Shown here: positions 39,229 to 43,240 of the stretch, piece by piece
Numbering within the stretch: position 1 is the stretch's first letter
How the letters are laid out: each line of letters opens with the position of its first letter
Source: Escherichia coli
GTDB lineage: Bacteria; Pseudomonadota; Gammaproteobacteria; Enterobacterales; Enterobacteriaceae
Assembly: GCF_003334765.1 (NCBI RefSeq)
Contig: NZ_QOWT01000023.1
DNA: 64,000 nucleotides
Strand: one strand, 5' to 3'
Translations under genes and position numbers: made by a program
Notes under the pieces: model-generated
What the model saw: only the letters and a program-made list of their open reading frames with translations
Database searches by the model: none
Told to the model about the DNA's origin: nothing

Positions 39229-41505
39229 ATGCTCAATCAAGAACTGGAACTCAGTTTAAATATGGCTTTCGCCAGAGCGCGCGAGCACCGTCATGAGTTT
39301 ATGACCGTCGAGCACTTGTTACTGGCGCTGCTCAGTAACCCATCTGCCCGGGAGGCGCTGGAAGCGTGTTCTGTGGATTTGGTTGCGCTCCGTCAGGAAC
39401 TGGAAGCCTTTATTGAACAAACCACACCCGTTCTGCCTGCCAGTGAAGAGGAGCGCGACACACAGCCGACGCTGAGTTTTCAGCGTGTACTGCAACGTGC
39501 GGTCTTCCATGTCCAGTCCTCCGGTCGCAATGAGGTTACCGGTGCAAACGTTCTGGTCGCTATCTTTAGCGAACAGGAGTCGCAGGCGGCATATCTGTTG
39601 CGTAAACATGAAGTCAGCCGTCTCGATGTGGTGAACTTTATCTCTCATGGCACGCGTAAAGACGAGCCGACACAGTCTTCTGATCCTGGCAGCCAGCCAA
39701 ACAGCGAAGAACAAGCTGGTGGGGAGGAACGTATGGAGAATTTCACGACGAACCTGAATCAGCTTGCGCGCGTGGGCGGAATCGACCCACTGATTGGTCG
39801 TGAGAAGGAGCTGGAGCGTGCTATTCAGGTTCTCTGCCGTCGCCGTAAAAACAACCCGCTGCTGGTGGGGGAATCTGGTGTCGGTAAAACCGCGATTGCG
39901 GAAGGTCTTGCCTGGCGAATTGTTCAGGGCGATGTGCCGGAAGTGATGGCTGACTGTACGATTTACTCTCTCGATATCGGTTCTCTGTTAGCGGGCACAA
40001 AATATCGCGGCGACTTTGAAAAACGTTTTAAAGCGTTGCTCAAGCAGCTGGAGCAGGACACTAACAGCATCCTGTTTATTGATGAGATCCACACCATTAT
40101 CGGTGCGGGTGCAGCGTCTGGTGGTCAGGTCGATGCGGCTAACCTAATCAAACCGTTGCTCTCCAGCGGTAAAATTCGTGTAATTGGTTCGACAACCTAT
40201 CAGGAGTTCAGCAACATTTTCGAGAAAGACCGTGCTCTGGCGCGTCGCTTCCAGAAAATTGATATTACTGAACCGTCGATCGAAGAAACTGTTCAAATCA
40301 TCAATGGCCTGAAACCGAAGTATGAAGCGCACCACGACGTGCGTTATACCGCAAAAGCGGTGCGTGCGGCGGTAGAGCTGGCGGTGAAATACATTAACGA
40401 TCGTCATCTGCCGGATAAAGCCATTGATGTTATCGACGAAGCGGGCGCTCGCGCACGCCTGATGCCGGTAAGCAAACGCAAGAAAACCGTTAATGTGGCG
40501 GATATTGAGTCCGTGGTGGCCCGTATTGCACGCATTCCAGAGAAGAGTGTTTCTCAGAGTGATCGTGATACCCTGAAAAACCTCGGCGATCGCTTGAAAA
40601 TGCTGGTCTTCGGTCAGGATAAAGCCATTGAGGCGCTGACTGAAGCCATTAAGATGGCGCGTGCAGGTTTAGGTCACGAACATAAACCGGTTGGTTCGTT
40701 CCTGTTTGCCGGCCCTACCGGGGTCGGGAAAACAGAGGTGACGGTACAGCTTTCGAAAGCTTTGGGCATTGAGCTTCTGCGCTTTGATATGTCCGAGTAT
40801 ATGGAACGCCATACCGTCAGCCGTCTTATTGGTGCGCCTCCGGGATACGTTGGTTTTGATCAGGGCGGTTTGCTGACTGATGCGGTCATCAAGCATCCAC
40901 ATGCGGTGCTGCTGCTGGACGAAATCGAGAAAGCGCACCCGGACGTGTTCAATATTCTGTTGCAGGTGATGGATAACGGTACGCTGACCGATAACAACGG
41001 ACGCAAAGCAGACTTCCGTAACGTGGTGCTGGTGATGACCACCAACGCCGGGGTACGGGAAACTGAGCGCAAATCCATTGGTCTTATCCACCAGGATAAC
41101 AGCACCGATGCGATGGAAGAGATCAAGAAGATCTTTACACCGGAATTCCGTAACCGTCTCGACAACATTATCTGGTTTGATCATCTGTCAACCGACGTGA
41201 TCCATCAGGTGGTGGATAAATTCATCGTCGAGTTGCAGGTTCAGCTGGATCAGAAAGGTGTTTCTCTGGAAGTGAGCCAGGAAGCGCGTAACTGGCTGGC
41301 CGAGAAAGGTTACGACCGGGCAATGGGCGCTCGTCCGATGGCGCGTGTCATCCAGGACAACCTGAAAAAACCGCTCGCCAACGAACTGCTGTTTGGTTCG
41401 CTGGTGGACGGCGGTCAGGTCACCGTCGCGCTGGATAAAGAGAAAAATGAGCTGACTTACGGATTCCAGAGTGCACAAAAGCACAAGGCGGAAGCAGCGC
41501 ATTAA
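39229..41505 (+). CDS. clpA: ATP-dependent Clp protease ATP-binding subunit ClpA
   Basis: 758 aa from [20 protein letters not shown]...; two AAA+ modules ([16 protein letters not shown]). Confidence 0.95.
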
Positions 41506-41530
41506 TCTGATTGTTAGGTAGGTTGGTCAA

Positions 41531-41564
41531 GTCCGTAATCTCGAAAGAGGTTACGGACTTTTTG
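41531..41564 (+). terminator. Rho-independent terminator of clpA
   Basis: Hairpin GTCCGTAA-tctcgaaagagg-TTACGGAC followed by TTTTT. Confidence 0.7.
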
Positions 41565-41717
41565 TTTATGGGGTGGAGGAGGTTCAGACCCTTTTTTTAA
41601 TGATGATGGTAAGTTGTTGATAATTAGTGCTGCGGGAAGGTAAGGATAAAAAAGGGTGCTGCAGGAGAATGGGATGGTTTTGCTTTATTAACAACGGGCT
41701 AAACGTGTAGTATTTGA

Positions 41718-41805
41718 GTTCACTGCCGTACAGGCAGCTTAGAAATTCACAGGTAACATACTCCACCCGCCCACCATGTTCACTGCCGTACAGACAGATA
41801 AAATG
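41718..41805 (+). CRISPR. Orphan type I-F CRISPR mini-array (2 repeats, 1 spacer; CRISPR4-like)
   Basis: Repeat 1 (41718-41745) GTTCACTGCCGTACAGGCAGCTTAGAAA is the I-F repeat; 32-bp spacer TTCACAGGTAACATACTCCACCCGCCCACCAT (41746-41777); degenerate repeat 2 (41778-41805) GTTCACTGCCGTACAGACAGATAAAATG. No cas genes in the window. Confidence 0.8.
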
Positions 41806-41806
41806 C

Positions 41807-41837
41807 GAAAAAAAAGCTCGCACTTTCGTACGAGCTC
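41807..41837 (-). terminator. Rho-independent terminator downstream of the serW position
   Basis: Minus strand: hairpin AGCTCG-tacgaaagtg-CGAGCT followed by T8, immediately 3' of the tRNA remnant. Confidence 0.55.
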
Positions 41838-41848
41838 TTCTTTAAATA

Positions 41849-41868
41849 TGGCGGTGAGGGGGACCGCC
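41849..41868 (-). pseudogene. serW: tRNA-Ser (serW) 3'-terminal remnant / probable att core at the island boundary
   Basis: Minus strand reads GGCGGTCCCCCTCACCGCCA; the last ~14 nt (CCCCCTCACCGCCA) match the acceptor-stem 3' strand, discriminator and CCA of tRNA-Ser, but no T-arm or body follows. Confidence 0.6.
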
Positions 41869-42022: not shown

Positions 42023-43240
42023 ATGGCAGTTTTGACGGATACTAAAGCAAGGCATATCAAACCTGATGACAAACCATTGCCCCATGGGGGAATTACAGGA
42101 CTGACTCTTCATCCTTCTTCAGTAAAAGGGCGGGGTAAATGGGTTTTTCGTTATGTAAGTCCGGTGACACAAAAAAGGCGTAATGCTGGATTGGGAACTT
42201 ATCCTGAGGTCAGTATTGCTGAAGCTGCACGTGCTGCCCGGATAATGCGAGAGCAACTTGCTGCAGGTGATGACCCACTGGAGATTAAAAAGGCTGAAGC
42301 TGAAAAAGTTGTTATCCCAACATTTGCCGATGCAGCCAGGCGTGTACATGCTGAATTGTCACCGGGATGGGAAAATCCAAAGCATGTCAGGCAGTGGTTA
42401 TCGACGCTTGAAAATTACGCGTTTCCTCAACTGGGAGCAAAAACGCTGGATTCGATTACGGCTGCGGACGTGGCAGAAACACTGCGTCCAGTCTGGTTAA
42501 CCTTGTCAGAAACGGCAAGCCGGGTTAAACAGCGCATTCATGTTGTTATGCAGTGGGGATGGGCGCACGGTTTTTGTGTGGCAAACCCTGTTGATGTGGT
42601 TGGCCATTTGCTTCCTCAGCAGACAAGAGGACGTGATGAACACCAACCCGCAATGCCCTGGAGGCAGTTACCGCTTTTTGTGGCGACCAGTGTGTATACA
42701 GATGAACCTTATAATGTTACCCGGGCACTGTTATTAATGGTGATACTTACAGCAACCCGCTCGGGCGAAGCCAGGGGAATGCGCTGGGCTGAAATTGATT
42801 TTCATAAGCGGATATGGACTATACCCGCAGAAAGAATGAAAGCCAGGATACAGCATCGTGTTCCTTTATCCCGGCAGGCCATTCACATTCTGGAAAATAT
42901 ACGTGGTTTGCATGATGAACTAGTGTTTCCTTCTCCCAGAAAGCAGCAGATCCTTTCAGATATGGTGTTGACGAGTTTTCTGCGTAAAAAGAAAGCCATC
43001 AGTGATATACCGGGGCGAGTTGCCACGGCACATGGTTTTCGCTCAACATTCAGGGACTGGTGTAGTGAACAGGGGTATTCGCGGGATCTGGCGGAAAGGG
43101 CGCTCGCTCATACGCTGAAAAATAAGGTTGAGGCGGCATATCATCGTACTGATCTACTGGAGCAGCGTGTACCGATGATGCAGGCATGGGCGGATTATGT
43201 GATGTCTCAACTTGCTAAAAACACTAAGGAATTCGCTTAG
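42023..43240 (+). CDS. int: Tyrosine recombinase, P4/CP4-57-type integrase
   Basis: 405-aa ORF with the P4-integrase-like N-terminus MAVLTDTKARHIKP... and C-terminal catalytic residues (R...HGFRSTF...Y). Confidence 0.9.
   Translation: MAVLTDTKARHIKPDDKPLPHGGITGLTLHPSSVKGRGKWVFRYVSPVTQKRRNAGLGTYPEVSIAEAARAARIMREQLAAGDDPLEIKKAEAEKVVIPTFADAARRVHAELSPGWENPKHVRQWLSTLENYAFPQLGAKTLDSITAADVAETLRPVWLTLSETASRVKQRIHVVMQWGWAHGFCVANPVDVVGHLLPQQTRGRDEHQPAMPWRQLPLFVATSVYTDEPYNVTRALLLMVILTATRSGEARGMRWAEIDFHKRIWTIPAERMKARIQHRVPLSRQAIHILENIRGLHDELVFPSPRKQQILSDMVLTSFLRKKKAISDIPGRVATAHGFRSTFRDWCSEQGYSRDLAERALAHTLKNKVEAAYHRTDLLEQRVPMMQAWADYVMSQLAKNTKEFA

Follow-up and report, generated by a model that had tools for sequence, protein, structure and literature searches.

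A resident orphan type I-F CRISPR array with a cas1f-matching spacer between clpA and serW in Escherichia coli

Residual CRISPR arrays in strains of E. coli devoid of the type I-F cas genes, then named 'Ypest', were described by Touchon and Rocha (2010; PMC2886076), who found in them only spacers matching Cas1, Cas3, and Csy2, remarked that the terminal repeat is conserved, and suggested that the locus serves as an 'anti-CRISPR'. It is the CRISPR3 of that study, and the single array has been named CRISPR4.1-2 by the Mojica laboratory (PMC3903273). The same laboratory later reported that native orphan arrays act against plasmids bearing I-F cas genes, through both interference and primed adaptation (Almendros et al. 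2016, Nat Microbiol 1:16081, as related in PMC8616872), and the expression of these arrays is stated to be constitutive (PMC8616872). Here, we analyzed a stretch of 64,000 nucleotides of E. coli DNA (contig NZ_QOWT01000023.1), hereafter the window, in which a small array of this kind lies between clpA and what is left of the tRNA gene serW. The features of the locus are the following:

39229-41505, plus strand: clpA coding sequence (stop codon TAA at 41503-41505), mapped from the annotation of the near-identical EC2 record; the conserved left flank.
41529-41560, plus strand: intrinsic terminator of clpA found by the terminator scan, an inverted repeat forming a hairpin with a 14-pair stem, plus a T-run (TTTGTTTATG).
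41561-41717, plus strand: A+T-rich CRISPR leader, with a homologue ahead of the clpA-proximal I-F array in cas-positive strains.
41718-41745, plus strand: repeat 1, with a 5-bp stem-loop (CUGCC/GGCAG), identified by consensus and Rfam match.
41746-41777, plus strand: the single 32-nt spacer, TTCACAGGTAACATACTCCACCCGCCCACCAT.
41778-41805, plus strand: degenerate terminal repeat (repeat 2), with the first 20 nt kept except for G17A and the last 8 nt (ATAAAATG) diverged.
41808-41843, minus strand: intrinsic terminator of serW (terminator scan), beginning 2 nt past repeat 2.
41849-41862, minus strand: 14-nt remnant of the 3' end of the tRNA-Ser gene serW (TGGCGGTGAGGGGG), an att-type duplication marking the junction of chromosome and island.
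42023-43240, plus strand: P4-type tyrosine integrase of the serW island (NCBIfam integrase domain, 2.5e-55; annotated in EC2 as tyrosine-type recombinase/integrase); it lies outside the CRISPR element.

The array thus runs in the order leader, one intact repeat, one spacer, and degenerate terminal repeat. Repeat 1 (GTTCACTGCCGTACAGGCAGCTTAGAAA) is an exact 28-nt type I-F repeat, with no mismatch to the consensus, and is the sole match to that consensus at three or fewer mismatches in the 64-kb window, while 100 shuffles gave none. It scores 50.1 bits (E = 2e-10) against the Rfam family CRISPR-DR4, whose gathering score is 35, and its predicted fold of -8.6 kcal/mol contains the expected stem, its last 8 nt (CUUAGAAA) being those that would form the 5' handle of a crRNA. 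Repeat 2 (GTTCACTGCCGTACAGACAGATAAAATG) starts 60 nt from the start of repeat 1, from which it is separated by the unique 32-nt spacer, and agrees with it at 19 of the first 20 nt and at three of the last eight; its CRISPR-DR4 score of 20 bits is below the gathering score. The G17A change in this terminal repeat places a C-A mismatch in the Cas6f hairpin, with a predicted fold of -1.4 kcal/mol as compared with -8.6 kcal/mol for repeat 1. A preliminary description of this DNA, made from its sequence, had proposed two I-F repeats, the second degenerate, around a single 32-bp spacer; the exact first repeat bears this out, and the assignment to type I-F held against the database family.

The 157-nt leader is approximately 93% identical to the clpA-proximal leader of APEC O18, and the 42 nt that adjoin the repeat are identical. 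Since both arrays of APEC O18 follow the direction of clpA, the array in the window is read on the plus strand with its leader at the clpA side, and its degenerate repeat lies at the leader-distal end, as expected. A strict scan of the leader for σ-70 promoters found none, and a relaxed one returned a sole, weak candidate (8/12; TTAATG-16 nt-GATAAT, ending at 41624). On the other side, the serW terminator, which is kept beside serW in both K-12 and APEC O18, may also stop the CRISPR transcript as it arrives from the opposite direction. The alignment to K-12 breaks exactly past the 14-nt serW remnant, island DNA starting at 41863, so that 57 nt lie between the end of the array and the junction. 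The distance of about 45 bp to the serW terminator and island boundary given in the preliminary description is therefore roughly right for the junction, with the terminator itself only 2 nt away. A scan of the 64-kb window detected no tRNA gene, and the intact serW must consequently sit at the far end of the island.

Between the clpA stop codon and the serW remnant, the window agrees at every base (100%) with E. coli K-12 MG1655, where serW is intact and no island is present at the locus. This identity of the intergenic region marks the array of the window as the orphan array resident in the chromosome. The corresponding 401-nt region was found in 5,424 of 5,426 complete E. coli genomes, most of which match up to the serW junction only. 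The cas-less junction, counted as coverage of at least 80% of a 71-nt query comprising the terminal repeat and trailer, occurs in 5,178 of these genomes (approximately 95%), and the 71 nt are 100% identical in 2,845. The cas1f gene, always chromosomal, is present in 241/5,426, and the sampled I-F-positive genomes match the 71-nt query in its terminator part only. Together the two groups make up 5,419 of the 5,426 genomes, and this comparison of group totals, as distinct from co-occurrence genome by genome, is consistent with the cas-less junction and cas1f being mutually exclusive. The proposal that the mini-array is the residual clpA-infA CRISPR locus of strains lacking the I-F cas genes is, in this way, well sustained.

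Absence of cas genes from the window had also been claimed, and it withstood a tblastn search of the 64 kb with six I-F Cas proteins, in which the best E-value was 0.24 and the top match was the spacer itself. The window matches strain EC2 at 99.9% over 3928-43758, diverging in the island and at the left end, and the annotation of that near-identical record holds only core genes from ybjL to clpA. The genes that adjoin the array in a complete type I-F system (cas1f, cas2/3f, csy1-3, and cas6f) are not found here. As no cas match exists in the window and the array runs straight into the serW terminator, we regard it as an orphan array and not as a complete system.

One protein of the island required closer consideration, as its product (49150-51588, 812 aa) matches the PADLOC model for 'CAS-associated' PrimPol at 1e-143. 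By Pfam, it is an archaeo-eukaryotic primase of the TOTE conflict system joined to a superfamily 2 helicase, and it reaches 84 bits against the NCBIfam CRISPR-associated PrimPol equivalog, for which the cut-off is 200. This PrimPol-helicase was accordingly rejected as a cas gene, given its TOTE-type domains and a score far below the equivalog cut-off. We might speculate that the PADLOC label itself derives in part from islands such as this one that adjoin the orphan array. This match, together with the 57 nt that separate the end of the array from the junction, could be taken to mean that the array was brought by the serW island or works with it through the PrimPol-helicase. However, the serW remnant separates the array from the island and places it with the chromosome; the array recurs base for base in K-12 beside an intact serW without any island, about 95% of E. 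coli genomes have it, and the domains and equivalog score of the PrimPol do not fit a Cas partner. An island-borne array was rejected on the K-12 comparison, and we put the probability of any such link next to nil: the serW island is unrelated to the array. Nor did the position beside the island, which had been singled out as notable, prove to have meaning, for the array occupies the same site in K-12 and in the 5,178 genomes with the cas-less junction, almost all of which lack the island seen here. The closeness of the two is a by-product of the integration of the island into the nearby tRNA gene serW, and it should not be over-read.

The insertions themselves deserve a brief account. The large serW island (41849-64000) runs off the window and, at this end, keeps the 14-nt serW 3' remnant only. 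Beyond its integrase, it carries a P4-alpha/DUF3987-like gene (43410-44939, minus strand), an inovirus Gp2-like gene, fragments of IS3, IS200, and IS2, the IS200-associated sRNAs STnc100 and STnc490 (54682-55026), followed by a match to domains D1-D4 of a group II intron (55732-55902), and the SPATE autotransporter gene espI (58826-62917), which is 100% identical to annotated espI. In the related strain EC2, the DNA past this serW junction includes iha, microcin H47, and ter genes. The opposite end of the window (1-4019) is the end of a P2-like prophage, an insertion absent from EC2, that abuts the gene for the RybB sRNA (3941-4019, minus strand) and ybjL. Its open reading frames are:

497-1975: tape-measure-like protein.
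1972-2457: gpU-like protein.
2454-3554: gpD-like protein.
3612-3863: Ogr-like zinc-finger protein.

The best match of the spacer is a cas gene of the I-F system itself. The spacer has the same sense as the antisense strand of cas1f, where its protospacer covers nt 98-129 of the gene and directly follows a 5'-CC, the published PAM of E. coli CRISPR-4 spacers (CC at the leader-proximal end, equal to GG on the other strand; PMC3506596). A search of the complete E. coli genomes returned matches in 2,579 of them: 1,433 at 32/32 and 888 at 31/32, where every sampled match was the array itself, and 258 at 90-95%, where the sampled full-length matches fell in genes annotated as cas1f, 11 shorter and weaker matches among those sampled having been set aside. 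The cas1f allele of strain E69 (TTCACTGG...) differs from the spacer at position 6 only (31/32), the common B2 allele, represented by APEC O18, at positions 4 and 6 (30/32), and the allele of 503440 and CEA224S at positions 4, 6, and 10 (29/32); the CC flank precedes the protospacer in all three alleles. When the conserved 26 nt of the spacer were sought as an exact match among species-representative genomes, two loci emerged, which are the E69 cas1f and a contig of a metagenome-assembled 'Proteobacteria' genome carrying the same E. coli orphan array. The latter (Proteobacteria bacterium B43T3L14, JADFJT010000085.1, positions 1080-1260) reproduces the array and its flanks identically, indicating that the contig is E. 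coli-like DNA.

At positions 4 and 10, where the cas1f alleles differ from one another, the encoded residue stays the same (Ser, AGT/AGC; Val, GTT/GTC), whereas the A of the spacer at position 6 would replace Ser by Cys and occurs in none of the cas1f alleles. The orphan spacer of O157:H7 has a T at position 6 and matches the E69 cas1f at 32/32. From both facts, it follows that the change at position 6 arose in the spacer after its capture. E69 (CP089930.1) was itself found to carry a third, divergent cas1f allele, with approximately 92% nucleotide identity to the two common ones of E. coli, which is preceded by an I-F array of 37 repeats and is the allele perfectly matched by the O157-type orphan spacer.

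The default expectation for a CRISPR spacer is the memory of a phage or plasmid encounter, and the preliminary description had suggested that this spacer may record a past encounter and could be searched for in phage and plasmid collections. Those searches gave no credible target: among phages, only a 17-nt chance match (E = 3), and among plasmids, only a match of 22/25 (E = 9) that is itself in the cas1f of a Vitreoscilla plasmid, while the full-length, PAM-flanked matches, found in E. coli genomes, are in cas1f. The notion of an encounter stands, with cas1f beside a CC PAM as what was encountered; that it was with a phage or an ordinary plasmid target is highly improbable. Alternatively, the sequence could be a scrap of cas1f that stayed behind between the repeats on deletion of the cas operon, as this gene lies directly downstream of the array in cas-positive strains. 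Against this origin, the spacer runs opposite to the chromosomal cas1f of those strains, has exactly 32 nt directly after a CC PAM in the source gene, and comes from nt 98-129, where there is no deletion edge; besides, other orphan arrays hold spacers from cas3f, in either orientation, with CC on the best-matching allele. The orientation, the length, and the PAM led us to reject the deletion scrap as extremely improbable. Being inverted, exactly 32 nt long, and adjacent to a PAM, the sequence is a captured spacer, and since it was taken from I-F cas1, on the antisense strand and beside a canonical CC PAM, we consider the array an 'anti-cas' array.

Comparison of array content, which had been proposed as a check, was extended to six further cas-less strains (O157:H7, Nissle 1917, M70, D6, LH13-b, and Res13-Sevr) and showed the same locus with cas1f or cas3f spacers throughout. 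All six have the ATAAAATG tail of the terminal repeat, also present in K-12, and run directly into the serW terminator. The spacers are not the same from strain to strain, yet all of them match one of two genes of the E. coli I-F operon, cas1f or cas3f, with 0-2 mismatches in the best case except for a 28-nt copy of the window spacer that bears a deletion; a CC flank accompanies each spacer in the allele that fits it best. Six orphan spacers from five further strains all match cas3f. The orphan array of Res13-Sevr (PER06-05-b-A; positions 351-555 of the locus examined) holds three spacers, of which the oldest is this 28-nt copy, shortened by a 4-nt deletion; the two newer ones match cas3f and are common to Nissle and, with one mismatch, to LH13-b. 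Such a pattern of spacers could reflect either the differential loss of spacers from a multi-spacer ancestor or their repeated acquisition after the loss of cas genes.

Taken as a whole, these data are very probably best explained by a resident orphan I-F array, identical to that of K-12, whose spacer was captured from cas1f at a CC PAM and which would act as an anti-cas element barring incoming I-F systems. Its anatomy, the identity to K-12, the PAM-flanked match to cas1f, and the way in which cas-less and cas-positive genomes complement each other almost perfectly were observed here; expression and interference are taken from the literature. In the working that we propose, the leader would drive a short pre-crRNA transcript, as reported for such arrays, and, in a cell lacking Cas proteins, the process would end there. 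Should an I-F operon enter, its Cas6f would cut after G20 of each repeat hairpin and release a 60-nt crRNA made of CUUAGAAA, the spacer, and GUUCACUGCCGUACAGACAG. The incoming Csy complex would load this crRNA and bind the cas1f protospacer beside the PAM on the incoming DNA, which Cas2/3 would then degrade or, where the seed mismatches, use for primed spacer uptake, and the I-F system could not establish itself. That the array might still matter if I-F Cas proteins arrive in trans had been anticipated in the preliminary description, and this is the published anti-cas mechanism (PMC2886076; PMC8616872).

Some details of the copy in the window bear on how well this would work. In type I complexes, position 6 is not base-paired with the target, so an allele of the E69 type should be fully targetable. 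A mismatch in the I-F seed, such as that at position 4, should weaken direct interference, and with the common B2 allele of cas1f, it would favor priming over direct cleavage. The diverged 8-nt tail of the terminal repeat should not matter because Cas6f cleaves upstream of it. Three points speak against the working of this copy, namely the seed mismatch at position 4 with the commonest cas1f allele, the weakening of the predicted Cas6f hairpin by G17A, and the failure of the leader scans to find a strong σ-70 promoter.

The same points are the core of a different explanation, according to which the locus is an inert relic, a true remnant of a lost I-F system that, in its K-12-type form, yields no usable crRNA and is kept by inertia. 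According to the fold prediction, G17A would disrupt the hairpin that forms the 3' end of the only crRNA; in addition, the spacer carries a derived substitution, it mismatches the commonest cas1f allele at seed position 4, the leader has no convincing promoter, and with I-F in only 241/5,426 genomes, encounters may be rare. Nevertheless, the 71 nt of terminal repeat and trailer are kept exactly in 2,845 genomes and the spacer in 1,433, the only change of the spacer falls at the unpaired position 6, and each orphan array sampled retains at least one cas-matching spacer. Moreover, native orphan arrays are reported to interfere with plasmids carrying I-F cas genes (PMC8616872). We consequently see an inert relic as an unlikely explanation, though one with a tangible share of the probability. 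Equally doubtful, judging from the predicted folds, is that the K-12-type G17A prevents Cas6f from making the only crRNA. If it did, around half of E. coli (2,845/5,426) would already have lost the anti-cas barrier, and the persistence of the array would not come from selection, weakening the accepted explanation of a selected 'anti-CRISPR'.

The array is, therefore, real, was correctly read, and is already known: its locus, cas-targeting spacer, and proposed role were described in 2010 and tested in 2016, the latter as related in PMC8616872. What is added to the earlier reading of this DNA is that the spacer targets cas1f and that the position at the side of the island is without meaning. For annotation purposes, the locus is better labeled as an orphan I-F (anti-cas1) array than as an active CRISPR system or as phage immunity. 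Laboratory strains of K-12 and B carry this I-F-type guide, which could be loaded by heterologously expressed I-F proteins able to recognize the repeat.

Among the relatives, the closest is the orphan array of K-12 MG1655, whose leader, two repeats, spacer, and trailer are all identical to those of the window; the only difference is that serW in the window is cut after 14 nt by the island, which left the array itself intact. O157:H7 (strain 7.1_Anguil) has the same locus and architecture, the same cas1f-derived spacer, and the ATAAAATG tail, but with T at position 6 of the spacer and an intact terminal stem, whereas the window copy has A6 and G17A, which are both derived point changes relative to O157:H7. 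The clpA-proximal array of I-F-positive strains (CRISPR4.1; APEC O18, 503440, E69, and LF82) shares the repeat, the orientation, and a homologous leader. However, it holds 8 to 36 spacers and ends in TATTCACA, in contrast to the one spacer and the ATAAAATG tail of the window, and it is followed by cas1f-cas3f-csy1-csy2-csy3-cas6f, which the window array lacks. In APEC O18, csy2 (4359-5282 of the locus examined) is annotated as a pseudogene with an internal stop, and for that reason the I-F system of this strain may be non-functional. The I-F-positive strains also possess a second array, between serW and infA, that is missing in K-12; together with its leader (1740-2700 of the APEC O18 locus), it is cleanly absent from the K-12 locus (480-870). 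A fusion of the two arrays by repeat-to-repeat recombination was rejected as the source of the orphan form, since it would have removed the intervening serW, yet serW is kept. When aligned, serW reads ...GAGGGGGGGATTCGAACCCCCGAT in K-12 and ...GAGGCGGGGATTCGAACCCCGGAT in APEC O18, a difference that looks like a compensatory swap of G-C to C-G in a stem. Finally, at the level of sequence, the array of the window shares with the anti-cas arrays of Almendros et al. (2016), reported to block the uptake of I-F systems, the cas-less clpA-infA locus, here between clpA and serW/infA without any I-F cas gene, the I-F repeats, and a PAM-flanked spacer directed at a cas gene.
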